From Diplonema japonicum (lineage: Eukaryota > Protista > Euglenozoa: Diplonemea): 64,000 nt of DNA. The position numbers and the translations under genes were made by a program. Shown in pieces: positions 10,489 to 59,944 of this stretch; within the stretch, counting starts at the first letter, position 1, and each line of letters opens with the position of its first letter. The stretch is taken from positions 434,001 to 498,000 of the forward strand of contig OZ025672.1 in NCBI GenBank assembly GCA_964019335.1, read 5' to 3'. Below the pieces are notes generated by a model. The model made no database searches. It saw nothing but the letters and a program-made list of their open reading frames with translations, and was not told the DNA's origin.

Positions 10489-11856
10489 TTAATCCACATC
10501 GTAAATAGCACCTTTTGCGTGAGGGGGGTAATACACCCTTTTTTGCGCTGGTGTAGGTGACACTGGGGCAGCACCGCCAGGTGAGAACGAGAAAAAATCA
10601 TCAAGATCTGTGACATCAACGTGCACGATCTCAATGGGTACATCTACTGCGACAACGGGTGAACTGGCAGGACCCGGCCCCATGGGTGTCGCCACACGCG
10701 CACACACTTCGAACGCAGTCACCTCAGGAAACACGGTACCAACAGCAATGTTCACCTTCAACGGGCCGTCACCTGGAAGGGTGTTTATTTCGTTTCATCC
10801 CATCCCTTTCCCCCATACCAGCAAAGGGATAACACGTCTGCTTCCATTCCACAGGGCATGAGAATAACGCAGGAGTGCCGGACCTTGCATCGACTTGATG
10901 CCGCCATTTTGCAGCAACTGTGAGGGATAAAAATAAAATAAAAAAAATAGAAGAACCCAACATTACATACCAACAGGCTTAATTCCTATCGAAATATGTG
11001 TGGCAGCGACAGGACCTGGGGGGAGGTCGCTTCGGGAAATGGAGAGAGAGAAGTGGCCCGGAGTGACGGAGGTGACAGAGATGCTTTGGGGAGGCGGCTG
11101 GACCGACACAGCGGACGGTTGGGGTGTAGAGGTGAGGAAGTCGAAGGCATCATCAGATTGCACGGTCACAGGGGACGCTTCCGACACGGTGGGCGTGGGC
11201 GTGGGGGAAGGTACTTGAGCAGCGACAGGGGACGGGTCCTGAGGGAACACATCATCTAACCGTGCTGGTTCCTCCTCTTCTCCTTGTTCACTTTCCCCCT
11301 CGCTGACCTGCTTTTCCTCTCCCTTTAAATAACACAGCGCCTGCTCTATATCGCCGTCTGCCAGCAGCAATGCAGACTGCGCAGTGTTGACAGGGTACCC
11401 CATCTCCACTAGCTTATCTAATGTCCCATCTTCAGACGCAGCCGCGGGCTTGGGGCTGGCTTCCTTTTTTACCGGGGTTTCTTTCTTTTGTTCCGTTGCT
11501 TTTTCCTCCTTCTTCACGATGTTGACGGTGGCCATCTTCTCCTTCAGTCCCGACATGGTTTTTGCGCCTGCTGTGGACATGGTTCCCAGAAGGCCTTTCA
11601 TCTTCCCTGCGATGTTTCCCATCATTGCCTCGCCCTTAGCGCTCAGCCCTTCTGCGGGTGGCGGGTCTGTGACTTTGAGCTGCGACTCCTTCGCACCCTT
11701 TTTCGACCCATCTTCGAATTTTATAATATATGTGTGTGGAGTGGTCAGCTTGTCGATGGCTGTCACGACACCCTTGCGAGACTCAGCACCGCTCATGCCA
11801 CTGAAACTGTTATTCACCGGTGCCCATTCCACCCAGTCATGCACCGCGAACGTCAT
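10489..11856 (-). CDS. Tudor/SH3-like + UBA + FN3-like protein; introns 10970-10918 and 10818-10773
   Basis: LDKLVEMGYPVNTAQSALLLADGDIEQALCYL UBA; spliced C-terminus has FEVCARVATPMGPGPASSPV resembling an FN3 F-G strand motif. Confidence 0.7.
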
Positions 11857-11927
11857 ACAGCTAGTGAGTGGCCTGTGGGGATGAGAAAGGAAGAAAAGGA
11901 AACAAGGAACATTTAAATATAAAACGC

Positions 11928-11943
11928 AGCGGTTATCACCACC
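11928..11943 (-). promoter_or_regulatory. Candidate histone 3' UTR stem-loop (GGUGGU-GAUA-ACCGCU)
   Basis: 6-bp stem/4-nt loop 85 nt after the H2B stop; stem conserved in the second H2B copy despite diverged flanks. Confidence 0.45.
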
Positions 11944-12028
11944 TGTGCCGTGGGGCGCAAAACATAGGAAAGGGAGAGGGAAAAAAATGAGAAAGAGTAA
12001 GGGGGTAAAGGAGGAGGAAGACTGCAGT

Positions 12029-12448
12029 CTAGTTCTTCTTGTTCTTGCTCTTGCTCTTGCTCTTCTTCGTCACGTCACCACCGCCGAAGGTCCCGACAGC
12101 GCTGGCACCAGCAGCAAGGGCATGGGTCGCAAGCTCCTTGGGAAGCTGCATCTTCACTGCCGCCATCACAGCCTTGGAGCTCAGCGTCTTCACCTGGGCA
12201 TGCGTGGTGAGGCGCCCCGCCTCTCCGGCGAGCCTGTCGAACAGGTCCACCACGAAGGAGTTCACGATCGCCATCCCCTTCGCCGTGATCTGCACCTTGC
12301 TGCCCTTGGTGTCCTGCGTCCTCATCAGCCTGTGGATGTACGTGTTGTAGCTCGCGTAGCTTGACCTCTTCCTCCTCTTCTCCCCATCCTCTTCCTTCTT
12401 CACCTTCTTCGATACCTTCTTCTCCTTCTTCTCCTTCCTCGCGGGCAT
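12029..12448 (-). CDS. H2B: Divergent histone H2B variant, copy 1
   Basis: SYNTYIHRLM...ITAKGMAIVNSFVVDLFDRLAGEAGRL...LPKELATHAL aligns to the H2B fold; basic N- and C-tails. Confidence 0.92.
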   Translation of the reverse strand: MPARKEKKEKKVSKKVKKEEDGEKRRKRSSYASYNTYIHRLMRTQDTKGSKVQITAKGMAIVNSFVVDLFDRLAGEAGRLTTHAQVKTLSSKAVMAAVKMQLPKELATHALAAGASAVGTFGGGDVTKKSKSKSKNKKN

Positions 12449-12601
12449 CTTTCTTTTTTGAAGGTTGAGGCTAAAAGTTGCTGTGTGTGCATGTGTGTGT
12501 GTGTGTGTGGTTAGGTGTTGAAGGTGAATTCAGAAGAAAAGCTAACGGACGGTGCTCTACGTGCACGCAGCCCAGAATAGGAGAAGAGTTAAAAAACTCA
12601 A

Positions 12602-12676
12602 ATTAACATGCAAGCTCCCTGAGACGAAAGCCGCATGCCCTAAAGGGGTGGGGGTATGGTCAGCACTAGGTATCTC
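12602..12676. repeat. Dispersed ~75-bp repeat with hairpin, copy 1 (copy 2 at 24070-24149)
   Basis: attaacatgcaa.ctccctgagacgaaagccgcatgccctaaa..ggggtgggggtatggt shared nearly identically. Confidence 0.85.
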
Positions 12677-12759
12677 AAACTCTACACTCTGCACTCTAAA
12701 AAAGGAAACTAGGGATCGTTACCTGAACCTCAAATGGGATAACATGACGAGTGTCAAGG

Positions 12760-13407
12760 TCAAGGATAAGAAGTACCTAGGCCAGTGTAGAGGGTGCGGC
12801 CCTGCTTCCTGAGAGCGAAGAGGACGTCTTCGGCCCGAACGGTCTTCCTCCCTGTGAGCTCCATAAGGGTCGAGGTGTCGGTAATCACTTCGTTCACGAA
12901 GGACGTCAGGATGCCCCTCGCCTCGTTGAAGGCCTCCTTTGAGATCCTCTTGCACCCACCACGCCTAGCCAGCCTCCTGATGCTCCCTTTCGTGATCCCA
13001 CGCCTCAGCCTACTCTGCACGAATACAATCCCACAAATTGCGTTGGAGGCAATTCCATGGAGCTCGCCACGGACACGCCTGGCAATGATGAGGTCTAGGT
13101 TGCTGAGGGTATGCTTCTTCCTGTGGATCTGCATCATGACAGCTGCCTGGAAGAGTTTGACCATGTAGCTCTCTGTTGCCTCCTGCATCGCCTCAAAAGC
13201 CGACGGCTTGAAGGACAGCCCTGCCTTGTATTTGTTCATGATGTCCCTCACCAGCCTCTGGAAGGGTGTCTTCTGCAGCAGCAGCTTCGACGTCTTCTGC
13301 AGTTTGAAGATCTCACGCAGGGCCACGGTTCCGGGCCTCCACCTCTTCTTTTTCGCTTCTTCGTTGCTCTTCTTCTTCCTCCTCCACCTTCTCACCATCT
13401 TCGGCAT
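12760..13407 (-). CDS. Fused histone H3-H4 doublet (H3 fold aa 1-115, ~20-aa linker, H4 fold to aa 215)
   Basis: [12 protein letters not shown]...PFQRLVRDI...ARRVRGE (H3) continues without a stop into [20 protein letters not shown]...[21 protein letters not shown] (H4). Confidence 0.88.
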
Positions 13408-13579
13408 TGTGTCTAATTAACAACTACCTGCATTCGATACTGCCCAGAGGACACAACGGGAAGGAATAAAGAAGAAACAAGAAAAGGGGGAACATAGTAG
13501 TTGGAAAGGGAGAAGGGGAAGAGGGGAAAGGAACCGAAAAGAAGCAAAAAGAAATACCAAAGGAGTGGGGGAGGGGGGG

Positions 13580-13718
13580 GCGTTTCCATACTTTTCAAAA
13601 TTCTTATGGAAACGGCTTCCTTCTTAAGGAAACATAAGGAAACGTTTCCGTTTCCGTATCCGTTTCCCTTTTTTTCAAAAAATGCATGGAAACGCGTTTC
13701 CATGCCAGCATAGCCCTG
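13580..13718. repeat. Array of GGAAAC/GTTTCC motifs with a perfect 22-bp palindrome (13684-13705); possible hAT-like transposon end remnant or regulatory element
   Basis: About eight GGAAAC motifs in both orientations; gcatggaaacgcgtttccatgc; reads CAGGGCTATG on the minus strand from 13718. Confidence 0.5.
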
Positions 13719-14114
13719 GGGGGGGGGGGGGGGGGGGGGGCTGGTGAGGTTTAGAAAAAGAAGCAGAAAAGAAGAGATACGGGGAGCACAGATCCAGTTC
13801 TATCTTTCTTTCATTATTCTTGGGGGGGGGGTTTCTTTTCTATTATTTTTTGTTTTAAATTTTCTTGCCTTCTCCCTTCCTTTTCTCGGAACAACAAAGA
13901 GAGAGAACAAAATTAAAATGGGGCTTTAAAAAAAAACTAAAATATTTAAGTTCGCGTCTTCGCGCTCACCAGCTAGTCCTTCGGGTTCAGTAAAGAAAAA
14001 AAAAGGAAGAAATCGCCTTTCGTTTCATTATAAGGCCTCCATTGAAGAAAAGAAAAAAAATGGGGCTTTGGTTGCAACACTATTTGGCGTTAAGTGTGCA
14101 GCGTGGTGGGGGGT

Positions 14115-17100
14115 CTATCTTGTGTTGTTACCCTTCTGCGTCGCTGCATTTTTATCGGCAGATGGGGTGGGGATACTTCGGGTAGGTTCGAGGTAGGTCG
14201 GCACGAACTTGTCGCTCCAGTCGTCTCTCCCCGGTGAACCGGTTGCGAGTCGCTGTTCGAGGATGAAGCGCACCTTGTCGTACGATGCGAATGTGGGTCT
14301 GCAGGTATACCCTCGGATCCGTTTGTTTGCACCAATGGATCGGAGGGAGGATGTCAAGAAAGGTTTCCCGGGGATAGGAGGGGGTCGTGCTTTCTTTTCG
14401 GCCACCTCTGACAGTTTTGTCAGAACTTTAGCTAGCCGGTTTGCACGCTTACGTACGTCAGCCGTATCTTCCAAGATGAGCTGTTTGGTCGTGGCCTCAA
14501 AGTCGAGTGCGAGCTCTATCCTTGAGACTGAACCATGTGGGCTCCACTGCAGCATGCGAAGCCATTTGAGCACTTCTGGGACAATCGTATCCCCTTGGAA
14601 GTGTTTCAGTCCGTTGTTCTTGTACCAATCCAGGCTTGGCACCGAGCACCCTCTTCCAACCAGCGGTCTGTTCCAAGGGAACCTTTCTACCGCGGCCTTC
14701 TTCGTTTCCTGCTTCGCGCTCACTCTCCTGATGATCGCAAGCAGCATCTGTTGTATTACCTCTGGCCGTTCCGTCTTACATTCCAGAGGGATGATGCCGT
14801 GTAGTGCAAGGCAGCGTGTGATCCCCTCTTGCCTGTATGCATGCATTGCAGGGGCGAACTCAGGTGCACCGCGTACCTCTTCGTGTGCCTTGCATTTCCA
14901 GAACGTGTGTATGGTGTACTCGTCTTGCGTGGTGAAGAGCGCCTCACACCCAATACATTGTACCTCTGGTTCGACGATCGGGTAGCTGCGGAACATGGCA
15001 CCCGTGATCATCCTCAAGCCAAGTCGTTCCTCTTGCACGGACCTGGCACTCTTCCACACCTCGTTAGTGCGGACTTCGTCAATTGCGCGGCCGACACCAA
15101 TAAAGGAGGGTCTGCCTTTGGCAACTGCGTTCCTTCTGATCGCTTTCGTCACTCGCCGTATCTCATGACCTCTGGCAGCTTTATGCACGCCCAAGAGGGC
15201 CCTGGCCCAAGGCCATCCGAGCTTGGCTGGTTCCAGAAGACGCAGGAGTGTTCCTATGGGACCAGCGGACCTCATATTCTTCGTGTACTTCTTCCGGATC
15301 TTTCTTGCACGCTTTCGTATTCTTCGATTTTCCGCTAGCCTCAGGACGGTGCCCGCCGTCTTGTAGGCAAAGGCAGCAAGAGGGTCGTGTGTGTGGCCCG
15401 GTAGTGCGATGTTCAAGAGCGCGCCCGATGAGCGCGTGGTGTTGTACGGACCCCACAGACAATCTGTTACAGCGATCCTAAGGGCGTCGATCTTCGCGTT
15501 TGACGGTGGGGCATATGGCGCACCGTATAAGGCAGCGGGTAGAATAGATTGGCTCACGATGAGGGCTTTCTTTGTAAAGGGTAGTTGTAACGCGGCCAGT
15601 CTCTTGGCTGTCTCGACCGCTTTCTCCACCCTCTTGTTGTCAGCCCTACCTTTCCTTTCCATTGACAGAGTGACTCCAAGGATCTTCACCTTCTTCTTCG
15701 TAGCAAACGTAAATCCACCCTGTCGTAGAGTTGACGTATACTTCTTCACGGTGCTGAAAGCAAGCGTCTTCTCGTGGTTCAGAGCCATCCCTGTGATTTT
15801 ACAGAACTCGGATACTCTATCAACAGCTCGCTGTACGTGTCGTTCTGACTTCCTGCTGTACATCGTCACATCATCGGCGTATGAGGTAGTTTTTGCCTTC
15901 GTCAAGTGTCCGATTTCTTTGACCATGATCGACAGCAGTGCGTTGATCAGAACGGCCGACAGCGGGCACCCCTGGAGGATTCCATTGTCCACGTGTAGCA
16001 CCTCGCCTACCCCAAGCGGTAGTTTTAGTCGGCGTTGCAGATTCTCATACACGTATCGCATCGGACGGGTGATGGATACGCTCAGGCCAAGGTCCTCTAC
16101 TAACGAAAGGGCAATCTCCTGCGGAACTCGATCAAAGCACTTTTGGAAGTCCAGCGCTAAGCCATACAGTGGCCTCCCACCTAGGAGTGCATCCTCTACC
16201 ATTGTCGATATGTCCATGAGGACATGGTCAGCTCCGTGTTTGGGCCTGAAGCCGTGCATGGTGGGATCGATCCATTTCTCCTGCCATTCGAGAACATGTT
16301 TGAGTCGGACACAGGCCCACAGGCGGTAAATCACACTGGTGACGGTGATCGGTCGATGGTCAAGCGGTTGGCCTGTACCATTTTTCGGGAGCATCGAGAT
16401 CAACGCAGTCATCACAGTGTCGGGCCAACGACCCTGTAGCTCAATAGCATTGAAAAGGTCCGCGAATGAGCCAAGAACATCGTCCGGCAGACAATGGAGC
16501 TCAGCAAAGCGCCACCCGTCAACAGCACACGCAGTCTTCTTCTTCGTTCTCGCGAGGACTACGCGCAAGTCCTGCACCGTAATCAGAGGACATGTCATTT
16601 CGGTGCGTTTGATGAACTGTCCGTAGGTCGCTTTGAATTTCTTGTACGACGGCTTGGTCTCTCCGTTTCCGAAGAGGCAGAAAACTTTCGCCCAATGCTG
16701 CTCCAAGGTCCTCAACATTTCGACTGCGTTAGCGGTGATCTGCCCACTGTCGCGCCGTACGGTTTGCGTGGTCTTCGTTTCTTGTTCCACCGTACCATCC
16801 TTTAAAAATGCCGTCACACGTTTACGGTCCGTGCCAAACTCTTCCGCAGTCCACCTCGCGTACTCCTTGTTCCGGTGTCTCTTGTTGCGGCTGATTATCT
16901 CAGCGTTCGACTTCGCAGCCCTACCCCTAAGCTCAGCCATCGCCGTGTAAATCTCGTCGTTACAAGACCAATCTTGGGGGTCGGGTCTCTCAGTCCATAG
17001 CTTCAGACGCACTGCAGTGGTGTACACGTTACGTATCTGTGCCCTCATCTCGTGCGACATGCATCCTATCGCGGGTGTTTCTTCCATTCGTCGGATCAAT

Positions 17101-18491
17101 GATTTAATCTTCCGCTTAAGGATCGCGACTTGGTTCTCTTTGCAGGTCGCTGCCCCACACCCTTCATGATTCGACGGTGCGGAAATCTCCCGAAGCACCG
17201 GTTGCCGCAAGTCTCCTCGCCCCCGCTGTGTGAGATCGGCTCCTAGGAGGTCCTCAACAGCGACGGCTAGGTATCGAATGGCCGAGTTCAGGTTAGTCAG
17301 CAGGGTAGTGTTGAAGATTCTGCGGTCGAACAAGCCAGGCGTTCCCGTGATGACGGTGTTCGGACATTTGAGCTGTCTGGGTACCTTGTACATGGGTACA
17401 AGTTGCCGCATGGCTGGTAACTTCAGCGTCACAGTTAGCGCTCGATGCGACGGCACGCCTATGTCTTCAGTAACACAGGACACAAGCGCTGCAGCAGCTA
17501 TGGGGTTCATCAGGATGTAGTCGGGTCTTGTGGCTGCAACGGCAGTAACGTAGGTGGGGCTTGGGTCCCTCCCTTGATGTTTTGCAAACATCGCGGATGC
17601 GTCCACCCAGTGCGTGTTAAGCGCATGTTGCAATGTAGGAGATGCATCGATTGTAGTGTTCATATCTCCAACTACAATGATCGGGACCTGGCCTAGCGAT
17701 ATCCGCAATCGGTTTAGGATATTGCAAAGTAAGGTTTCGCGAGCAGCGACTCCAGCCTTCGACTTATCAACATCGGCGTACAGGTTAACTACGTGTAACC
17801 ACCTGTTGCCTTCACCCATCGCGTACATTACATGTTGGAATCTCGTCTGCTGTCCAACATCCGGGAGGACATGCTGTTCTATGCAGGTGCCGGGAATACG
17901 GTATAATGTGGCGACGCCTCCCCTCTCCGCTAAGGTTGGGGATTCAACACCGTCCAGCATCAGTCCACGTTGCGGTTTCCCAAATATGACACGCCTCTGC
18001 GTCATACCCGGATCCCCCTTCATTGTTGTAGCCACTTGGAATTGTGTCGTAGCCGTCAGCGCCGTCTCCTGAACACACAGGATATTGGCTGTTACCTTCT
18101 TGAGGATGTGGAATGTGTTGTTCCACGAAGTAACGTTAACCGATGTTATCGTCACTGTGTCGCACGTTTTCGCATCACCTATCGATGTCAAGGGCGGACG
18201 CGGAACACTACCTTTCGTGCCTTGAGGTTCTCCCGCTGGAACGTAGAAGTCCTTCCATAATCCTGTCGTCTTCACCTTGAGGGATATCTTCTTGCATGGC
18301 GGGCCAGGGTTGGGGTGCACATCACCATCAGCTAACAGCCTGAGGAGTGCCTCCATCGCGATGTTTGAATATGCATGTTTTTGGTTGCATATTCGGGGAA
18401 GGGAGAAGTAGGGGCTCATGCTAAACACTGAAGGGGGGTAGCAGAGCAGGGGAACACTGATTGGGAGGAAGATCATGATACGGGTCCTCAT
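14115..18491 (-). CDS. LINE ORF2: 2A-like peptide, APE endonuclease, reverse transcriptase, C-terminal CCHC finger
   Basis: SVNVTS, LCVQET, VVGDMN, TRPDYIL, SHRAL (APE); HRPITV, LDFQKCFDRV, ILQGCPLS, YADD (RT); CIGC...HTFWKC; ATG at 18491 overlaps the ORF1 stop. Confidence 0.92.
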   Translation of the reverse strand: MRTRIMIFLPISVPLLCYPPSVFSMSPYFSLPRICNQKHAYSNIAMEALLRLLADGDVHPNPGPPCKKISLKVKTTGLWKDFYVPAGEPQGTKGSVPRPPLTSIGDAKTCDTVTITSVNVTSWNNTFHILKKVTANILCVQETALTATTQFQVATTMKGDPGMTQRRVIFGKPQRGLMLDGVESPTLAERGGVATLYRIPGTCIEQHVLPDVGQQTRFQHVMYAMGEGNRWLHVVNLYADVDKSKAGVAARETLLCNILNRLRISLGQVPIIVVGDMNTTIDASPTLQHALNTHWVDASAMFAKHQGRDPSPTYVTAVAATRPDYILMNPIAAAALVSCVTEDIGVPSHRALTVTLKLPAMRQLVPMYKVPRQLKCPNTVITGTPGLFDRRIFNTTLLTNLNSAIRYLAVAVEDLLGADLTQRGRGDLRQPVLREISAPSNHEGCGAATCKENQVAILKRKIKSLIRRMEETPAIGCMSHEMRAQIRNVYTTAVRLKLWTERPDPQDWSCNDEIYTAMAELRGRAAKSNAEIISRNKRHRNKEYARWTAEEFGTDRKRVTAFLKDGTVEQETKTTQTVRRDSGQITANAVEMLRTLEQHWAKVFCLFGNGETKPSYKKFKATYGQFIKRTEMTCPLITVQDLRVVLARTKKKTACAVDGWRFAELHCLPDDVLGSFADLFNAIELQGRWPDTVMTALISMLPKNGTGQPLDHRPITVTSVIYRLWACVRLKHVLEWQEKWIDPTMHGFRPKHGADHVLMDISTMVEDALLGGRPLYGLALDFQKCFDRVPQEIALSLVEDLGLSVSITRPMRYVYENLQRRLKLPLGVGEVLHVDNGILQGCPLSAVLINALLSIMVKEIGHLTKAKTTSYADDVTMYSRKSERHVQRAVDRVSEFCKITGMALNHEKTLAFSTVKKYTSTLRQGGFTFATKKKVKILGVTLSMERKGRADNKRVEKAVETAKRLAALQLPFTKKALIVSQSILPAALYGAPYAPPSNAKIDALRIAVTDCLWGPYNTTRSSGALLNIALPGHTHDPLAAFAYKTAGTVLRLAENRRIRKRARKIRKKYTKNMRSAGPIGTLLRLLEPAKLGWPWARALLGVHKAARGHEIRRVTKAIRRNAVAKGRPSFIGVGRAIDEVRTNEVWKSARSVQEERLGLRMITGAMFRSYPIVEPEVQCIGCEALFTTQDEYTIHTFWKCKAHEEVRGAPEFAPAMHAYRQEGITRCLALHGIIPLECKTERPEVIQQMLLAIIRRVSAKQETKKAAVERFPWNRPLVGRGCSVPSLDWYKNNGLKHFQGDTIVPEVLKWLRMLQWSPHGSVSRIELALDFEATTKQLILEDTADVRKRANRLAKVLTKLSEVAEKKARPPPIPGKPFLTSSLRSIGANKRIRGYTCRPTFASYDKVRFILEQRLATGSPGRDDWSDKFVPTYLEPTRSIPTPSADKNAATQKGNNTR

Positions 18492-20611
18492 CTTTGGCGA
18501 TGTGTGCTCTTCCCTGTTGCACACTTCTGATGTTGTTGTTTTTGTTGATGTTGTTGTAGAAGTTGTTGAGTTGCGCCTAGCTGTTGCACCATAGGCGCCA
18601 TTGCCTGCGCGATCAACCTTTGTACCACATCGGTAGCTCCAAGCGGGTCTTGGGTGGGCGGGGTCGGTTCTGGTTTCTTGGTAGCGGTAACCTGCTGTAC
18701 GGCCTGCTGCAGTTGCTGGATCTGTTGGACGATGGGTTTCAGTGCCTCTGCGATGATGCCGTTCACCATGTCCGCCCAGTTCGGTGGTGTAGGCTGCGGG
18801 GACGACAACGAAGGTTGTTGGGGTTTCCAGGCGCTCGTCGTGCCACCTTGGAACGTCACAGTCCCGCCGATCCCTACACCTTCCTTCTTCGCCTTCGGGT
18901 TTTTCGCCTTTGGGTTTTTCGCCTTCGGGTCTCTCGCATTCGGGTTCTTCGCCTTCGCCCCAGCCGTCTTTTTCGGTCTTTGGTTTACCACAGTCTTCGA
19001 TGTCACGTCGCCCTTCTCCGCGTCGGTCTCCTCCATCTTGGCGTCCACTCGGCGCTCGTTCTTCTTCCTTAGCAGTCCGATCCCACCGAACAGCGGCACC
19101 TCGAACCCGGGTGGCTCCTTCTGTGCTAGCAGCATCCACCTTTTGGTCGACCCTCTTAGGGATGACCGAGTCACCTCGACCGTCCACCCCCATGCAGCCA
19201 ACATCATCTTGAGCTCTGTTGGTCTCATGTCGCGTGGCACCTTCTCCAGATACCAAGCCTCCGTCTGCGGTGTCGCTAGACCCTTGGCTTCGAGGTTCTT
19301 CCGGAGTTCGTTCTCCGCTGTACCCGGCGCCACACGAATACCAACCCGCTGTCGCTGGTCCACCGCAACCCCAGCGTATTGCTGGTACTTCTGTGCCACC
19401 GAGACGGCCATCTCGAGTGTCATACCCTTCTTCAGCCACACCACGCTGTCAGAGGTCTCATCCATCGGCAGCCTTGCGGTGATCCCGTCCTTGCCACTCC
19501 TACCTAGTAGCTCCGGTGCTCTGTTGGATGCCACACAGACCGTGGTCTTCGCGCACTCCGGGTATACCCTCGGCCTGGAGAGGTCGAAGTCCTTACCTCC
19601 AACCCAGGTGGTGAACATTTTGTTGGCCTCATCCAACGAGGACTTCTTGTGTAGCGTGAGATGCACCAGCGTCGTGCACTTCTTCTTGATGGTTTCCGCC
19701 TGTCTTGCCATGGGGGCGAGATCGGACCAACCCATATGTGACATCCAAACTGTCAGTGATGTCGTGCCGGAGCGGTCTGGAAGGTCAAACGCGACTTGTT
19801 GCTTCTTGCCAGGGATCGCTGGTAGCGGTTGGCGGGAGATGAGAGTGAGGTGCTCCGGTTTGTGGTGCGACAGGTGCCATTCGCACGCTGCCATGTCTTC
19901 CTGCTCGACTAGCATGACACCACAGCAGTTTTCCGTCACACCGATGATGTCTGTAATGATCGGGAATGTCCAATCCAATTCGCGCAGCTTCAAGTTCGCA
20001 AATGTTTTCGGTGGGAGGGGTTCCTTCCCGGCGATCATCTCCGGGAGGGATGCGGTCTCCGGCCGTACCAGGACTGGGTTGGTCGTCAACAGGCCGTCCG
20101 GGCCGTCCGCGTCTTCCTTCTTCAGGGCGTAGTATTCACCCCCGATCTCAGCCAGCCAGCCGACTGGCACCCCCTGCGCGTGGCCAATCATCTGTGTAGT
20201 GATGACCTCCCCGTCCGTCTTGACGAGCCCAATGGGCGCGCCAATGCGCTCCGCGTAAGCGAGGATGGCGACTTCGTCGCCCCTTGCATTCCACTTCCTC
20301 AGGCTCGCGACGTAGTCGTCGAGCCTGACGGCAAGGAACCTCGCGTACAGCTCCTTGTTCGACTCCATCACCGACGCAACCAACTCGCGGATCGTCGCTT
20401 CGGCGCTTACCTCTCCGTGTCTGATAAAGGAGAGACAGCGAAATAGTTGTCCTCCTTGGTCACCGCATGAACGCAGGCGGAAACCGTAGCTCCTCACCTG
20501 CCCGTCGTACCACTTACGCACCTGATGTGCCCACCCCTTCTCGCTCGTCTCTTCGCGGCCGAAGCCCCCGGGCGGCGCCTCCGAGGAGGCGGACGAGCCG
20601 GGTTTTGTCAT
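18488..20611 (-). CDS. LINE ORF1 with N-terminal OTU-like domain, K-rich pentapeptide repeats and Q-rich coiled-coil end
   Basis: 707-aa ORF directly upstream of ORF2; GDQGGQLFRCLS...RGDEVAILAYAE...GGEYYAL resembles OTU; KAKNP repeats. Confidence 0.8.
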   Translation of the reverse strand: MTKPGSSASSEAPPGGFGREETSEKGWAHQVRKWYDGQVRSYGFRLRSCGDQGGQLFRCLSFIRHGEVSAEATIRELVASVMESNKELYARFLAVRLDDYVASLRKWNARGDEVAILAYAERIGAPIGLVKTDGEVITTQMIGHAQGVPVGWLAEIGGEYYALKKEDADGPDGLLTTNPVLVRPETASLPEMIAGKEPLPPKTFANLKLRELDWTFPIITDIIGVTENCCGVMLVEQEDMAACEWHLSHHKPEHLTLISRQPLPAIPGKKQQVAFDLPDRSGTTSLTVWMSHMGWSDLAPMARQAETIKKKCTTLVHLTLHKKSSLDEANKMFTTWVGGKDFDLSRPRVYPECAKTTVCVASNRAPELLGRSGKDGITARLPMDETSDSVVWLKKGMTLEMAVSVAQKYQQYAGVAVDQRQRVGIRVAPGTAENELRKNLEAKGLATPQTEAWYLEKVPRDMRPTELKMMLAAWGWTVEVTRSSLRGSTKRWMLLAQKEPPGFEVPLFGGIGLLRKKNERRVDAKMEETDAEKGDVTSKTVVNQRPKKTAGAKAKNPNARDPKAKNPKAKNPKAKKEGVGIGGTVTFQGGTTSAWKPQQPSLSSPQPTPPNWADMVNGIIAEALKPIVQQIQQLQQAVQQVTATKKPEPTPPTQDPLGATDVVQRLIAQAMAPMVQQLGATQQLLQQHQQKQQHQKCATGKSTHRQR

Positions 20612-23014: not shown

Positions 23015-24069
23015 TTAAAGAAAGAAAATGACAAAGGGTGAAATAAAACTACCTACTTTATTATGAGCCATTCATTAACTTTTCCCCCCCGTAAGGGAGC
23101 ATTTCGTTCGAGAAAAAGAGAGAGAGAGAGAGAGAGAGAAAAGTGGAAACACAGGTTAAAAATCATAAGTTGTTTGGTAATAAATAGCTACTCCCTCCCC
23201 CCCCTCTTTCTATTTTTATTTTTATTAAAAAATGTCCAAGGTTCACTGAAGATGCACTGACCTGCATAAAGAACGGAGTTCCAAAAAAAGAACTTTCCAA
23301 AAAAAAAAAAGTTTCTTGTGGTCTCTAAGCTTCTGTACCTGGGCGCTTCTCGGGTTTTTAACGGATCCGGAGAGTTATAAATTTGTCAGTCATTACCAAA
23401 AATTTACAAGAACAAAAAAAAAAAAAAATAAGGGAGTGGAATGAGAAAAAAAAAAAAAGGCTTGATAGCTGCAACTTAAGGTGGCGTGCCAAGAAAAAAA
23501 AAAGAAAAGAAATACTACAATAGAACAGCTAAAGGGGGAGGAAACCCCTCTCGTGTACACTACACAATCCATGTGTGAAATAACTTTTACTGAAACTTTT
23601 TTTTTTTTTTTTTGGAATATGCTGGTTATAATATAGTGTACTGGATGAAAAGAAAAGAAAAAGACAAATAAATAATAGAGAAAAGGAAAAAGAAGAAAAA
23701 AAAACAAACAAACCCCCCCCCCCCCCCCCGTTGTTACTTGATTGGCCCCTATTCTCTTTTTTAATTTTTTTTCTTCTCTTTCCCAGGGGCTGATATGAAT
23801 AAAAAGTTGGAGAGCCCCCGACCACAAGGCATATTCTTTTTTTTTTTATTCCCCCTCTTTTTTTTTCCCCCCCTTCTTTTTTAAACCCCAATACCTCAGC
23901 TAGGCGAAAAGGAAAAAAAAAAAGTTTTTGCCGCCTTTCCCAGCTGGAGAATACATGTCTGAAGGAAAGCAGGGGAAAGGAGGGAAGAAAAAAAAAAGGA
24001 GGGGGGAAGCAAAAAAAAAAGGGAATGCCGGGGAGGTGGGGACACTGACAATAAAAAAAAAAAAATCAG

Positions 24070-24149
24070 ATTAACATGCAATCTCCCTGAGACGAAAGCC
24101 GCATGCCCTAAAAAGGGGTGGGGGTATGGTGGTCAGTACTAGGTCTCTC
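24070..24149. repeat. Dispersed ~75-bp repeat, copy 2
   Basis: Near-identical to 12602-12676. Confidence 0.85.
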
Positions 24150-26802: not shown

Positions 26803-27855
26803 ATGCCGCCGAAGACTGCCAAAGCGGGTGGAGAGAGGGTTGGATCACCCACCTCCCCGCCTCCGTGCCAGACGCCAGGCCGGAGTGAGGCGACCCCTAA
26901 GAGAACCAGGGTCGACCGGCTCGTCGAGCAGGCCGTTCAGAGGGCCATCTCCGAGCTGCTCCCCACGGTTAGGGACCGGGTGGAGAGTTCGCACCTTGGG
27001 TCGGGACATCGGCTGGAACTCTCAGCCGACCGAGCTGATCGAGGGCCAAGCGCCGAGGGTACGACTGGGGTCAACCTCCCCGGAATTCGCGACGGAAGGC
27101 GCAGACGCCTAGCCTCGCAGTCTTCCGCACCACAGGACAACCCCGACACTCAGGCTCCCCCACCGCTATGGGGTCTGCAAGCCTTAGAGCCGTCGAAGTG
27201 GGCGTGGTTAGAGCCGGGCGAGCGCCCCATGGTGGTGGCCAACATCGCCATGCAGTACAGGCAGCTGACCGTCGGGCCCCACGCTTGGGAGGCAGGCATG
27301 CGGGTCAAGGACCTGCAGGAGATCGTAATGGCCATTGGCTGTCAAGACCCGGTGGAGCTAAACTCAACGCTTGTCCGCCTCGCCGAGCGAGCCATCGTCC
27401 GCCTGCAGGCCCTAGAGAGGGGCAGCAGGGACAACTGGGAGGCCGCCGACGCGATCCAGCAGGCGTTCGACGGGCAGTCGGTCCCTACTTTTTTGAGAAA
27501 GGGAGAACGCCTGGCCGAAGAGCTCACCCGTCGATGCAGGAAGCGAAAGCTCACGGACAGCGCTACAATGGGGAGGCAAAAGCCGCAGGGAAGGCAGGGC
27601 GTCCGGGGAGAACGAGGGCAGATCCCGCAGAGGAGGCAGGTCCGGATCGAGGGATCGGCGCAGGAAATGACAGCGTTGACAGCCTCTCCCCCTGCACCCC
27701 ACGTACCCCACGCCCCTTATCCAAACTCACATTTTCTTCCTCTCTCTCCCTCTCGACAAACAAACAATGTTCCCTCGCTAGGAAGGCCGAAAGTCACCGA
27801 ACTCCCGCTCACCGCGAAGCAGAAGGTCAGGGTCTCCCGGGAAGCCGACCGGCAC
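26803..27855 (+). CDS. Gag-like ORF of the YR retrotransposon (frame continues into the YR N-terminal domain)
   Basis: ATG at 26803 (MPPKTAK); position upstream of YR; basic C-terminal segment; function inferred from position only. Confidence 0.6.
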
Positions 27856-28667
27856 ATGAGGAGCGCCCTCAGCGAGCAGTACTGGGCCAGCATCACGTCG
27901 GTCTACAGACGTTTCCTGGAGTTCAGGAAGCACTGGGACGTCCCCTCCACTCCTTGGGCCATCATCCTTTTCGTCACCAAGTTGATGACACTGAACGACC
28001 TGAAGGTGCAGTCGGCGCTACAGTACTGCGTGAACATCAGGGCAGCCGAAGCCAGGTATGGACAGGGCCCCGTTCAGAGCAGAGCGCTCCGAGATTTCGA
28101 ACGCAGCCTCCGGCGCCAAGGGGCTTGCGGCCTCAGAAGCAGGCGATTCCTGCTACTCCCATACAGCTTCGGAGGGCAATGCGCAAGACATCGAGCGAGA
28201 AGGTTCGAACCGTCCTCGAACTCGCCTGGTATGGGGCGGCCAGGTGCTCGGATGTCATCCGCCTGAAGTGCAAGGACGTGACGGTCATGCCGGGACACAT
28301 CGCCGTGAACTGGTCCAACACCAAGTCGGACCCTTTTCGACTGGGCATCACGACGGGGGTGGCCGTCTCGGAGAGGGCCAGACTTTACATCGGACGCACG
28401 CTGCTGGAGGCTGGGCCGGACGACCTCCTGTTCGAAGGTGTGAAATACCCCCACGTGAACAGAGCAATGGGCAAAGCTTCGAAAGGCCTCACGGCCCACT
28501 CCATTCGCGGGGGCGCGCTTCACACGCTAATGCGTAGGGGGGCTGCGCTGGAAGAATTGCGGGCTGTCTCCCGTCACTCATCGACGACGGCATTGATGCG
28601 GTACCTCCCCCAGGCCGAGGTACACACAGTGAGGGCGACTGCAAAGACTTCTTCTTTGCTCAGGTGA
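27856..28667 (+). CDS. Tyrosine recombinase with an apparent 1-nt frameshift near 28125
   Basis: Helical N-domain (MRSALSEQYW...) in one frame; catalytic R (ARCSD), K (TKSD), HxxR (HSIR), H (SRH), Y (MRY) in the next frame. Confidence 0.88.
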
Positions 28668-28761
28668 AATTCCCTTTTTCTTTTTTCCGCAGTTCCGCCA
28701 AGGTCAGCCAGGGTGCTGACTACGACCCTTTGGACGGTTTCGAGACTTTCCCGTCGGCTGA

Positions 28762-30347
28762 CCCCTTCATGGATATGACGCAGAACCGCGTTTGTTTGGC
28801 ATCTCGCCTCCTGCCCAGCGGGGTTCAGACGGCGACATTGCGGCGATATCGAGAAGCAGGATCAGTGTCCCTGCCCTCAAAGAGTTGGACGAGCGTGGGA
28901 TCCTTGACGGTGTCGTCGATGTCATCTGCTGTGAACATGCTTTCCGGGGTGCGCTGAAGGAAGGGGCATTGACAGAGATGGAGGCTCCGAGGTACTTGAG
29001 GGGCACATCGCGGGGCATGCTTCGCCACCTCCCGACGCTCAGAGATTACGGAGGAGGAAAGTGAAGATCGACCACCCGAAGGTCATCCTCCCCCTGTTCA
29101 CCGTGCCAAAGAAGTCGGGAGATCTCCGTCCGGTTCAGGACGGCAGGAAGCTGAACCTCTTGATGAAGCCACCCCCCCAGATGTTTTTGCCGCCGATCTT
29201 GGAGGTGATCGAGCGCTTCCTACGCGCAAGGTATGTTGTGACGGCAGATGCGAGGAGTTGGTTTTACCAGTCCCCGCTGTCACCCGCGGTAGCGAAGTTC
29301 TTCGGGGCGAGAGTTTCTGGCTGGAGGGGTCAGTTCAGCACCGTGGTGATGGACGTGATGGCGATGGGGTGGAGTTGGGCGCCAGCTATCGCGCAGAGGA
29401 CCGCCACGGTGTTGCTGCCGGAGGAGCAGGGTGTGTGCTGGATTGACAACTTCTTCGTCCTGGCACAGAGCCGCGAGGAAGCTCTCGGGAGGTTCGGTTG
29501 CTTTTTGCAGAGGTGCGAGAAGGTCGGGGTGGACCTGCACTTCGACGAGGCTGGTGCGGGCGTGCCAAACCAGGAGTTCGAGGCTTTGGGGCTTGCTTTT
29601 GATCTTGTGTCCGCGCGGTACAGGATGGCTCCGAAGTGGGTAGAGAAGGTTCTGCAGGCTGAAGAAACGACGAAGGTTGTCGGCGACAGCAGGTGTACCC
29701 CGAGGGAGTTTTCTCGGCTATTCGGCAGGGTCGTCTGGCACCGGTACACAACCAGGCATCCTCTCTGTTTCCTTCCCCACGCCATCAGTTTCCTCCGCAA
29801 AGCCACATCCTTGGTAGCGAAGGAGCCGCAGAAGTGGGACGAGACCGTGGCCGTTCCCCCATCTACTGTGGCTGACGTGAGGCGTGCGCTGGCGGTGATG
29901 GCCAGGAACGCCTGGAGAACCCGACCAGACGAGTTACCTGAGAGGGTGGTGTGGACTGACGCTTCGTCGACTGCCTGGGCAGGGGTCATGCTGGATGAAG
30001 GCGTCGTGAAGCACGTGACGCAGGGAGAGTTCTGCGGACGGTGGGAAGCACGTCACATCTTCCTGAAGGAACTAGCGGCAGCCCGGGAAGGAGCTTTCAT
30101 GGCCCTCCGTGGGGGGTCCCGCTGCAAGGTATCGCTGATGGTCGACAACCTGCCTGCTGTGTACGCGATTCGGAAGGGGCTGTCATCTAGCTTCATGGGA
30201 AATAAGATAATTGCTGACATATACACTCTCGTAGAGGAGCGTCAGGCAAATCTCCACGTCCAGTGGGTTTCCACACACGAGCAGAAGGCAGACCCATTCA
30301 CGCGGGGCGTTGCGCACCCGGGGGCAAGATCAGGCCACTTCCTGTAG
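28762..30347 (+). CDS. Reverse transcriptase + RNase H of the YR element; N-terminus frameshifted (~29055), true start uncertain
   Basis: LFTVPKKSGDLRPVQDGRKLN, DARSWFYQ, MAMGWSWAP, WIDN (YxDD equivalent); RNase H WTDAS, HIFLKELAA, VDN, QKADPFTR. Confidence 0.88.
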
Positions 30348-55389: not shown

Positions 55390-57856
55390 CTGTAAAACAA
55401 AAATCACCGGAAGATAAAATGTCCGGAAGAGAAATTGTCCGGAAGATAAAATGTCCGGAAGCTCTGGCGGTCCGGATATTTTTTCTTCCGGACATTTTTT
55501 TCCCGGGACCCCCTTTTCTTTTAAGGGCTGGACCCGAAAACGGATGAAACTAGTTTCTGTAGCAAGAGAAAAATCAAACGAAAATCAGAGAGAATTGAAT
55601 TACGGACTTTTCCAAGAACTAAAAGATACCTCAGATCCTGATTGTTCGCTTCTACCACAAACTTGTCGAACCGAACCACTCCTTGTGCTTGCTTTAGGGT
55701 TGTTCTTGTGCTTTTTATTTCTCATTTTCCTAGCCCCCTAAACACATTCCAGACGCTTAATCTTTCATTAAACTTACTCTTCATTAACTTTTTCAAAAAT
55801 GCAACAGGGCACTTTGACTAACTGGGTTGGCAAGCGTACCTTTTTGGATGCTGGCAACTCCGGCCATCTTACCCCCAGGGAAGTGCAAGAGATCAACACC
55901 TTGCACGCCGCCAAGAAAGCAAGAAAGCCTCCGAAGCTCAAGCTTGCTGAGGCTGAAAAGGCCAAAATAGGCCGCTACGCAGCCACCTATGGTACCACGG
56001 CGGCCCAGCGCTGGTACCGCGCGAAGGAAGACATCACGGTGCCAACGTCCAGTATATCAGACTGGAAACACCGCTTTGGTAGCTCCAAGGTCGATCCCCC
56101 TGCCGCACCCGTTACTGCGGGTCGCAAGCCTCTTCTGAACGAGGAAGAAACAACCAAGCTCTTTGCTTGGATCCAGGTGCAGAACGGAAGGGGGGTGCCG
56201 GTAGCAGCGTCGGACATCTGCCTGTATGCAGAGGGTCTCCTGCGCTGCAACCCGCTGCGGAAGGAGAACCTCGAGGCGTTTGGGGGAACGGTGTCTTTCT
56301 CCCAAGCCTGGGCCAACCAGCTGTGCTCCAAGCATGGCATGACAAGCCGCCGCCCAACAACAGGGAAGTCTAGCAGCCTCAATGACACCCAAGCAGCAAG
56401 GAGGTTCGCAGAGTACGTCGGAAGGACCATCAAAGAACATGGGATCAGGCCAGAGTTGACCTGGAACATGGACCAGACGGCGCTTCCCCTGCTGCCGCTG
56501 GGGAAGAAGACGAAGACTAAAAGGGGTTCCAAGGTTGTCAAGGTTAGGGGCTTGGGGGACAAGCGTGCCGTCACCGGACAGTTTTGCGTTTCCCTGTCTG
56601 GTGGCAAACTGCATCCGCAGTTAATTTACACAGGAAGAACAGAACCAGCCCGCTGCAGGAAATATCCTGGGTCCGTCCCTCGTGTTGCACACCCCCCAAA
56701 AGGCTGGAGTTTAACAGCTTCGAAATCCCACTGGGCCACCCAAGAAACGCTTCAGCTCTGGGTAAAACGTGTCTTTCTCCCCTGTTGCTATAAACTTATA
56801 AAGTCATCGGGCTGGGCACCCAACGAGCCCATCTTGCTCATCCTAGATGACTACAATGGCCACACTACGGATGATTTTGTGAACTTGTTTTTAGAAACAA
56901 ACGTTCACTTAGCTTTTGTCCCTCCAGGCCTCACCTATTTGTGCCAGCCCCTGGACATAGGACTGAACGCCTCAATGAAGGCGACAATCAAAACCAAGTA
57001 TAAAAAGTGGTCTATGAGGAGGCTGGACAAGTATGTGGAAGAAGGGAACCGTCAGGAAGGGTGGACGGTACCAAGTACAAGTGAGATAAAAGGACCACAT
57101 CTGAGGTATTTTTTAAAAAATAAACTAAAATAATTCAACTTGCCCTCTTTTTTCTGCCAGGTGGGTTGAAGCAGCCTGGGAGCATGTCAGCAGGCAAGCT
57201 ATACAGGCAAGCTGGGCCCATTGTTTCGGGCGTTTTTTAGAGCCCTGGTGGAGTCCTGCTTGGGAGAATTCTCTCATTGCAGCAGCATACTGTGGTGTGC
57301 TTGCCGTTGCAGCGACGTGCTGCGGAGATGAAAAGTGGGATGAAGAGTGGGAAGAGTGGGAAGACCAGCAATATGCCAAGCTTGCTAGGCAGCTGGAAGG
57401 GGCCAGAGAAGTGTTGGATGACACGATTGTCGTGTCATCTGACACAAGTACGGTTTCCGCCGCTTCTTGGGTGGACGAAGCTTCGTTTTCCGTTTCTTCT
57501 TCTTCTTTTTCTTCGGTAGAAATGCTCCCCCCCTTGACCCAGCAAAGACTTGCTGAGGCCGAGGCCAGGCGCACTGCCAAGGCTGCGAAGGCAGCAAAGA
57601 CGGACAGGTAGGACGTTCCTCACCCCCTTTTTTTAGTTTTATTTTTGCCATTTTTAAGACTCTTGCAACAGAAACATAAGTTTTTCCAGGGAAACATGCA
57701 GCAGACAGGGGGGGGGACAGTGCGTAGGGCAGGCTAGGTACCCCCTTGAAAAGTGCCCCAAAAAAATGTCCGGAAGATAAAATGTCCGGAAGAAAAAATC
57801 ACCGGATGTTTCGGCGGTCCGGATATTTTATCTTCCGGTGGATTTTTGTTTTACAG
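55390..57856 (+). mobile_element. Apparently intact pogo-superfamily (DD35D) DNA transposon, 2467 bp
   Basis: TA at 55388-55389 and 57857-57858; ~38-bp TIRs CTGTAAAACAAAAATC(C)ACCGGAAGATAAAAT.TCCGGA; subterminal CCGGAAGA repeats. Confidence 0.92.
55799..57611 (+). CDS. CENP-B-like HTH + DDE_1 transposase; intron 57106-57160
   Basis: WNMDQT, LILDDYNGH, QPLD with 35 residues between D2 and D3; splicing restores RWVEAAWEHVS...SW and an acidic tail. Confidence 0.9.
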
Positions 57857-59524: not shown

Positions 59525-59944
59525 CTAGTTCTTCTTGTTCTTGCTCTTGCTCTTGCTCTTCTTCGTCACGTCACCACCGCCGAAGGTCCCGACAGCGCTG
59601 GCACCAGCAGCAAGGGCATGGGTCGCAAGCTCCTTGGGAAGCTGCATCTTCACTGCCGCCATCACAGCCTTGGAGCTCAGCGTCTTCACCTGGGCATGCG
59701 TGGTGAGGCGCCCCGCCTCCCCGGCGAGCCTGTCGAACAGGTCCACCACGAAGGAGTTCACGATCGCCATCCCCTTCGCCGTGATCTGCACCTTGCTGCC
59801 CTTGGTGTCCTGCGTCCTCATCAGCCTGTGGATGTACGTGTTGTAGTTCGCGTAGCTTGACCTCTTCCTCCTCTTCTCCCCATCCTCTTCCTTCTTCACC
59901 TTCTTCGACACCTTCTTCTCCTTCTTCTCCTTCCTCGCGGGCAT
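59525..59944 (-). CDS. H2B: Divergent histone H2B variant, copy 2
   Basis: Three nt differences seen from copy 1 (one S->N, two synonymous). Confidence 0.92.
   Translation of the reverse strand: MPARKEKKEKKVSKKVKKEEDGEKRRKRSSYANYNTYIHRLMRTQDTKGSKVQITAKGMAIVNSFVVDLFDRLAGEAGRLTTHAQVKTLSSKAVMAAVKMQLPKELATHALAAGASAVGTFGGGDVTKKSKSKSKNKKN

Follow-up and report, generated by a model that had tools for sequence, protein, structure and literature searches.

The minus strand of the 64-kb window (by which we mean the whole 64,000-nucleotide stretch of DNA analysed) carries at 13407..12760 a single intronless ORF of 215 aa, with no internal stop, in which an H3 histone fold is followed by an H4 histone fold. 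This arrangement had been described in a first-pass annotation made from the letters alone, and profile matches agree with it: the H3 fold occupies residues 11-115 (Pfam PF00125, E 4e-31; PDB H3, E 1e-26) and the H4 fold residues 136-208 (PDB H4, E 6e-20). The further remark that there is neither a stop between the folds nor an in-frame methionine at the start of H4 also holds. From its N-terminus, the protein consists of a shortened basic tail of 21 aa with 7 lysines (13345..13407, minus strand, as are all the following segments; delimited by alignment to P0009 and P0010), an H3 half extending from alphaN to alpha3 (13063..13344), 13 of whose 94 positions differ from D. japonicum H3, a linker of 20 codons (13003..13062), a tail-free H4 half (12787..13002), which differs from D. 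japonicum H4 at 17 of 72 positions, and a new C-terminus, TGLGTSYP, replacing the AVA of the parent (12760..12786; parent alignment, compared by eye). The linker ([20 protein letters not shown]) is hydrophobic and its GC3 is 0.55 versus about 0.81 in the folds; it has no second copy within the 64-kb window and, by eye, no resemblance to the H4 tail or to H3 3′ UTR loose ends. With 48 K+R against 16 D+E, the protein is very basic. It thus has the two histone folds in one polypeptide that define a double histone fold, and RNA spans the linker (see below); we consider the existence of the fusion as confirmed.

Directly downstream on the same strand lies an H2B gene (12029-12448, -), which is multi-copy, of high depth and probably the canonical H2B. 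A second H2B gene (59525-59944, -) is 98% identical to it over 564 bases, with one amino-acid difference, and lacks an H3-H4 upstream; a search of the whole 64-kb window for H2A motifs gave none. On the other side, a long open ORF of a non-LTR retroelement (14115-19193, -), with endonuclease and reverse transcriptase, lies upstream on the same strand, its end being about 700 bases from the fusion ATG. The gene is also flanked by two short repeats of very high depth, one at 12591-12676, with a second copy at 24059-24149, and the other at 13580-13695, which is MITE-like, with 16-base inverted arms. Two more transposon regions, at 27039-30347 (+) and 55772-57133 (+), comprise ORFs for a tyrosine recombinase and, next to it, a reverse transcriptase, and a DDE_1 transposase, all in the orientation opposite to that of the host genes; by its arrangement, the recombinase and reverse transcriptase pair is presumably DIRS-like. 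A search of 11800-14300 against Rfam gave nothing above chance (4 matches, all under the gathering score).

Evidence for transcription comes from two sources. The EukProt set for D. japonicum contains a protein, EP01064_Diplonema_japonicum_P036145 (P0003; from a Trinity ORF named complete), which is identical to the fusion at 214 of 215 residues, T47A being the sole difference; on this basis the marine diplonemid D. japonicum is regarded as the host. The second source consists of sequencing runs, of which 6 of the 21 listed were compared, all as contigs rather than reads. In X3, a spliced, RNA-type run, a 184-base contig (12954-13137) bridges the linker with 0 differences, reaching 49 bases into H4 and 75 into H3; together with 12616-12824, 12795-12972, 13123-13188 and 13159-13321 it forms a series of pieces that match without a difference, the first of which extends into the 3′ flank, thereby delimiting a putative 3′ UTR at 12616..12759 (-). 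In X10, the piece 12954-13042, with 1 difference, falls short of a bridge across the linker. A third run, X11, coded as a different organism (B) and guessed to be RNA, has a 297-base contig (12830-13126) that does bridge it, with 21 differences and 0 gaps; its depth is 4.35 and few of the 21 differences are among the rows listed. The DNA-type runs X2 and X4 leave the middle of the linker without cover, but their records were filtered, so that this hole is not evidence. Unspliced contigs from X3 and X11 thus cross the linker, with the transcriptome protein as an independent witness, and it is supported that the fusion is transcribed and left unspliced across the linker.

The claim that the linker contains no GT..AG interval of host intron size needs to be amended. 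A GT..AG of 60 nt does span it in frame (nt 334-393 of the coding sequence); its donor, GTCCGT, does not fit the host pattern, since the four GT..AG introns spliced in X3 in neighbouring genes are 39-53 nt long and begin with GTATG in 4/4 cases. Introns of D. japonicum have been described as 98% canonical with a median length of 41 nt, in the part of that report available (PMC12621601). Excision of the 60 nt would, moreover, still yield a fusion. At the 5′ end, cover in X3 and X10 stops at about 13413, close to an AG situated five bases before the ATG, which makes 13408..13414 (-) a candidate trans-splice acceptor; this is not proof of one, because a second component of the DNA-type run X4 stops there too. 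That X4 component, ending at AG 13413, could mark a retrocopy boundary. Depth in X3 is about 14 over the 5′ tail of the fusion versus 236-387 over its body.

Both halves resemble the histones of the host. Among the 120 best relatives listed for the H3 half (1221 matches of 1279 candidates), the top places are taken by stand-alone H3 from D. japonicum, at 85% identity, and from D. ambulator, at 79%, followed by other diplonemids; for the H4 half the nearest are the H4 of D. ambulator and D. japonicum, both at 76% (30/30 candidates). The folds are 52% and 58% identical to human-type histones, and about 25-50% identical to divergent H3-H4 doublets. Separate trees, which had been proposed as a check, agree in showing both halves as diplonemid and host-derived: the H3 half (52 rows) groups with D. 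japonicum and D. ambulator with support 99/95, within a diplonemid-like clade supported at 100/100, and the H4 half (55 rows) falls within the diplonemid-like clade at 98/99, with the bootstraps of both trees not yet settled. The H4 half branches there as sister of all 12 other diplonemid-like H4s and not beside its presumed parent, P0170; pairing it with P0170 is not rejected by the AU test (p 0.47), while placing it with four divergent doublets is (p-AU 0.0002, under a constraint that also forces those four together). Judged from its sequence, the fusion arose by the in-frame joining of H3 and H4 gene copies from the host itself. Of the two origins that had been put forward, host gene fusion or viral transfer, the first is thus borne out and the second, given this parentage, is not supported. 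Neither half branches outside the eukaryotic clades and neither viral DNA nor viral neighbours surround the gene: a scan of 31 ORFs in the window gave ordinary eukaryotic genes and transposons wherever there was a match. None of 9 candidate stretches in viral contigs and none of 160 in metagenome contigs is related, and the latter contain 0 exact matches to the linker motif. A euglenozoan H4 motif was carried by 0/148 new representatives. In the EukProt search, made with residues 100-215 as query, there were 4 matches among 136 candidates, 1 of them covering the whole query, and P0003 was the only fused protein among them; no fused ortholog from another diplonemid was thus seen in that set.

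The canonical tail motifs ARTKQTAR and SGRGKGG are absent from the fusion, as had been noted, but they are also absent from the stand-alone H3 and H4 of diplonemids and their loss is, for this reason, not a property of the fusion. Nor is the protein ‘tail-less’, since it keeps the 21-residue tail with its 7 lysines. Compared to the parent H3 tail of about 43 residues and 14 lysines, this tail is likely, from the alignment, to be an in-frame-deleted version. What is specific to the fusion is the halving of the H3 tail, the loss of the 35-residue H4 tail, which is replaced by the linker, and the new C-terminus. By eye, and by comparison with a loose end at 12787, TGLGTSYP reads as the frameshifted remnant of the canonical H4 end, the old stop being now out of frame. 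It is the only visible frameshift and it comes after the last residue of the fold; the frame survives both the tail deletion and the junction.

The positions reported at the H3-H3′ bundle (H113, D123, L126I, I130V) are as stated in the alignment to the parent, where L126I pre-exists, so that I130V alone is new in the fusion. Residues R40, R42, T45, R49, R69, R72, H113, T118, D123 and R131 of H3 and R35, R36, R39, R45, R78, K79, T80 and R95 of H4 are kept, and presumably have DNA-binding and interface roles. New changes in H3 are clustered in L2-alpha3 (Q99H, N102S, H103N, N107I, I112V). We also considered known H3 variants. A cenH3 is expected to have a loop 1 insertion, and both cenH3 and H3V to have lost the conserved glutamine of alpha1 (PMC7052976). 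The fusion has no insertion in loop 1, where there is no gap relative to canonical H3, and retains the alpha1 glutamine (PFQRLV); we therefore rejected its identification as cenH3/CENP-A or as trypanosomatid H3.V.

The relation of the fusion to the canonical genes can be approached through contig depth, which gives no copy number and is a poor measure of expression; the estimates of copy number and the sister locus discussed here are drawn from it. In X4, canonical-type H4 and H3 have depths of 137 and 176, where single-copy stretches have 12-18. In X3 the fusion has 236-387, and canonical-type letters as much as 19,000-155,000. Roughly, stand-alone H3 and H4 persist at about ten copies, with in the order of 100-fold more RNA depth, the fusion amounting to about 1%. 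With many stand-alone H3 and H4 genes beside it, the fusion ranks as a minor paralog, and the wholesale alternative nucleosome that had been envisaged is therefore unlikely. The same runs hint at a close relative. In each of X3, X10 and X4 there is a variant of 12795-12972, 176 bases long, that departs from it by 13 differences plus a 2-base gap, as well as a joint that skips 13005-13134 (130 bases). The X4 depths of this variant (18.5) and of the exact piece (17.7) are both at the single-copy level, which fits a second, degenerate sister locus with a 2-base gap elsewhere in the genome; the 130-base skip probably belongs to that same copy. Since the frameshifted sister also appears in RNA-type runs, at a similar depth (176 versus 250 for the fusion in X3), the presence of RNA is no demonstration of function. 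The sister has canonical letters at 12882 and 12905, while the bridging contig of X11 has, as judged from depths, those of the window; because of these shared letters, we read the X11 copy as a probable, gap-free ortholog of the intact gene at 7% divergence, on sequence grounds.

The evidence on selection is mixed. As against the 13/94 and 17/72 changes that separate the fusion from its parents, the stand-alone H3 and H4 of D. japonicum and D. ambulator differ at 7 and 0 positions over the same spans. For codons 29-83, in the H3 half, pN/pS comes to at least 0.34; for codons 136-202, in the H4 half, it is about 1. Both are rough values, calculated from the numbers of differences and including synonymous changes of the parent branch, and the piece used for H4 has 2 gaps. 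The location of the changes tells another story. Only 6 of the 30 fall in the 77 of 166 columns that do not vary among the diplonemid-like histones compared (9 and 11 sequences; Fisher p=0.001), and only 1 of 30 in the 46 columns that are broadly invariant (p=0.0003); for H4 alone the broad-column test is not significant (p=0.12), and these p-values are approximate, the sequences compared being related. Changes in H4 are conservative (mean BLOSUM 0.76 vs -0.47, p=0.0008), those in H3 not significantly so (p=0.17). The open frame by itself is weak evidence, since neutral drift would leave it open with a chance of 0.09-0.25 for 70-41 substitutions and the ORF had been picked for being open. A dN/dS near 1 had been named as an outcome that would speak against the fusion as a working protein; the H4 half comes close to it, and it is the placement of the changes that argues for constraint. 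The overall pattern suggests relaxed or redirected selection under which the fold is kept.

Structure prediction, which had also been suggested as a check, gave a model that folds as a double histone fold. It was obtained with a 15-row subset of the alignment, as combined alignments misplaced H4 or the alpha3 of H3, and has pLDDT 70-85 in the folds and below 50 in the linker (mean 61.8, pTM 0.56); from the single sequence, AlphaFold reached a pLDDT of 44.6. Residues 47-207 of the model match the histone doublet of Methanopyrus kandleri (1f1e) with Z 11.0 and rmsd 2.9 over 128 aligned residues, and the model matches the Melbournevirus protein 7n8n_A with Z 10.1, values of 10-11 being within the range flagged for helical bundles. 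With Foldseek, matches to the PDB are weak and of high rmsd (best E 4e-4). In structural comparison with viral proteins, the fused H3-H4 of Medusavirus stheno (BFVD A0A7S8BDF4) ranks first, with E 4.9e-7 and 21% identity. Probably the model leans on memorised histone structures. The length of the spacer, 20 residues, lies within the range of 13-23 found in seven divergent H3-H4 doublets (among the best 150 of 14,994 matches), and it is by comparison with these doublets only that it appears adequate for a handshake. The two folds are predicted to handshake intramolecularly as an H3-H4 pair. Prediction of a homodimer, in which the alignment was not used, scored 0.10 against a mark of 0.32, which is evidence neither way.

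Reviews had treated fusions of this kind as unconfirmed in eukaryotes. According to the accessible part of Talbert et al. 2022, no eukaryotic core-histone fusion was confirmed, and the cases from animal databases that were checked turned out to be mis-predicted splicing (PMC9145170). More recently, Ranaudo et al. 2026 described animal H3-H4 doublets (HSIH-DHF) from BLAST and AlphaFold analyses of predicted proteins; in the portions of the article available to us there is no transcript test, and the words ‘transcript’ and ‘Diplonema’ do not occur in its supplement (PMC13520046). These animal proteins are, as far as that text goes, similar to ours in being eukaryotic, of about 220 aa, in the order H3-H4 and predicted to form a pseudodimer (PMC13520046). 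The fusion differs from them in being intronless, in keeping alpha3, in its new linker and lack of an H4 methionine, in the RNA that crosses the junction and in the divergence of both halves. Five canonical-like doublet models (P0195, P0197, P0201, P0204, P0205) have an H3 broken before or in alpha3 and an H4 with its start and tail kept; by their sequences they bear the signature of mis-splicing, which the Diplonema fusion does not. Where such an error occurs, normal start and stop codons are retained around the predicted intron, and here there is neither an H3 stop nor an H4 methionine. With 85% and 76% identity to the host H3 and H4, the fusion exceeds the 60% identity to nucleosomal histones that is the lower limit of the HSIH-DHF class, as given in the available parts of Ranaudo 2026 and, for Miyake 2026, through PMC13088155. 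A search with human queries at these cut-offs would miss it, because it is only 52%/58% identical to human-type histones.

Other known systems share one or another of its features. Medusavirus stheno has a fused H3-H4 in the same H3-then-H4 order, according to the part seen of PMC9145170, and the giant-virus doublets, such as the H4-H3 of Marseilleviridae (PDB 7n8n), likewise have two core-histone folds in one chain; in contrast to these, the fusion is cellular, recent and host-derived, a minor paralog rather than the main packaging histone, and only 21% identical to the medusavirus protein. The seven divergent doublets from the representative library are probably viral; one has a 40% full-length match in a contig of a giant-virus MAG (L010), while two other viral scans gave none that was full-length. 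The M. kandleri doublet, also an intramolecular histone-fold pair and the best structural match of the model, is archaeal, of HMf type, 18% identical and of independent origin. H3.V and H4.V of T. brucei are euglenozoan variants of H3 and H4 which, from the excerpt available, occur in one nucleosome, where a tail change alters the DNA ends (10.1101/2025.09.24.678203); they differ in being separate proteins, shown in nucleosomes. In H3V the glutamine of alpha1 is missing (PMC7052976), whereas the fusion, which descends from canonical D. japonicum histones, retains it. A microsporidian H3-H4 fusion was not borne out by a search of the literature. Nor did our searches of the accessible literature find a published report of the Diplonema fusion; the word ‘histone’ has 0 occurrences in the D. 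japonicum genome note (PMC13598402).

In sum, the gene encodes a eukaryotic core-histone doublet, derived from the host and supported by transcripts, which is young and minor and for which the evidence on selection is mixed. We lean, with some reserve, towards the reading that it is a young variant, retained by selection, and that it enters a few nucleosomes as an obligate H3-H4 pseudodimer. The protein would fold on itself into an obligate H3-H4 pair, whose four-helix H3 surface would pair mostly with a normal H3-H4, since canonical H3 and H4 appear to be in large excess, and normal H2A-H2B would then be added. The resulting nucleosomes would be asymmetric, one side having no H4 tail, half an H3 tail and the linker. 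Because of the covalent link, the variant H3 would be restricted to the variant H4 as its partner, and by analogy with the H3.V/H4.V of trypanosomes the fusion might mark a special class of chromatin. It is conceivable too, although we would not wager on it, that this is the first verified eukaryotic core-histone doublet working in chromatin, that tethered H3-H4 re-evolved from a host's own genes within one genus, and that the tether lets the two halves co-evolve rapidly as a locked pair.

The main competitor is a young, functionless chimera in decay, transcribed and processed owing to its same-strand cluster and a kept start codon; its open frame would reflect a brief or past constraint, and it would be following its broken sister. 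We consider this rather unlikely, despite a number of observations that suit it: the pN/pS of about 1 in H4 and a pace of change far above that of the parents, the occurrence of the 2-base-gap sister in RNA-type runs as well, the non-LTR element and short high-depth repeats on either side, the hydrophobic linker with its low GC3, and the lack of a fused ortholog in the other diplonemid proteomes searched. What it explains less well is the scarcity of changes in the invariant columns (p=0.001 and 0.0003), the conservative nature of those in H4 (p=0.0008) and the absence of frameshifts inside the folds, with a gap-free probable ortholog in X11 at 7% divergence. Selection could also maintain the protein for a role outside nucleosomes, either as a soluble H3-H4 mimic for chaperones or modifying enzymes or as halves released by cleavage of the linker. 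The C-terminus of H4 is changed and that of H3 extended, in regions which we take to be important for chaperone binding and H2A docking, and the new changes cluster in L2-alpha3 of H3. The known eukaryotic double histone folds have, in the sections consulted of PMC13088155, non-nucleosomal roles, and the Sos-type folds described there lose their DNA-contact arginines. The fusion, unlike the latter, is very basic and keeps the arginines that contact DNA in histones, and we find this role quite improbable.

An artefact, whether a chimeric assembly or an RNA spliced or trans-spliced into separate H3 and H4, could draw on the in-frame 60-nt GT..AG across the linker, on the fact that none of the contigs among those listed spans the whole coding sequence, and on a transcript assembly that crosses a stretch shared with canonical H3. 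It has to contend with the independent transcriptome protein, with the contigs of X3 (0 differences) and X11 crossing the unspliced linker, with the absence of a methionine for a separate H4, with many private changes in both halves and with a donor that misfits 4/4 local introns, all of which leaves it very improbable. Transfer of a giant-virus doublet to the host chromosome is largely refuted and, to us, scarcely credible. In its favour, the best viral structural match is Medusavirus stheno and, of the atlas clusters ranked by features, the first (score 0.91) is 96% viral, resemblances that we attribute to the shared architecture. Against it are the 85%/76% identity to host histones, compared to about 25-50% to the divergent doublets, the position of the H3 half with Diplonema (99/95) and of the H4 half in the diplonemid-like clade (98/99), rejection of a grouping with doublets (p-AU 0.0002), the 0 of 9 related viral stretches, and neighbours that are eukaryotic genes and transposons. 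Viral histone repeats, according to the part seen of PMC11222145, branch outside the eukaryotic clades.

If the favoured reading of a kept, nucleosomal variant is true, a proposed ratchet against histone fusion would be escapable in a lineage with non-canonical tails, and tethered H3-H4, a proposed intermediate in the origin of the nucleosome, would have re-evolved in a living eukaryote. The fusion offers a transcript-supported case in which the parent genes are known, with a broken sister as internal control and a probable ortholog, and allows one to test whether a eukaryotic nucleus tolerates a fused H3-H4 devoid of the H4 tail. The idea that tethered histone folds drift together has been expressed in the accessible part of PMC10919886, and joint drift could be tested directly here. 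Even a decaying chimera would demonstrate that fusions of this kind come into being and are expressed.

The canonical H3 and H4 of diplonemids (P0009, P0010, P0016, P0139, P0170) have themselves diverged strongly: their tails are rich in lysine and non-canonical, and there are changes at R63, R83 and C110 in H3 and at Y72 and H75 in H4; on the histone genes of Diplonema papillatum, our literature search found one review. Three H3 entries filed in EukProt under Petalomonas cantuscygni and Entosiphon sulcatum (P0128, P0134, P0138) fall in Diplonema clusters and are probably contamination.
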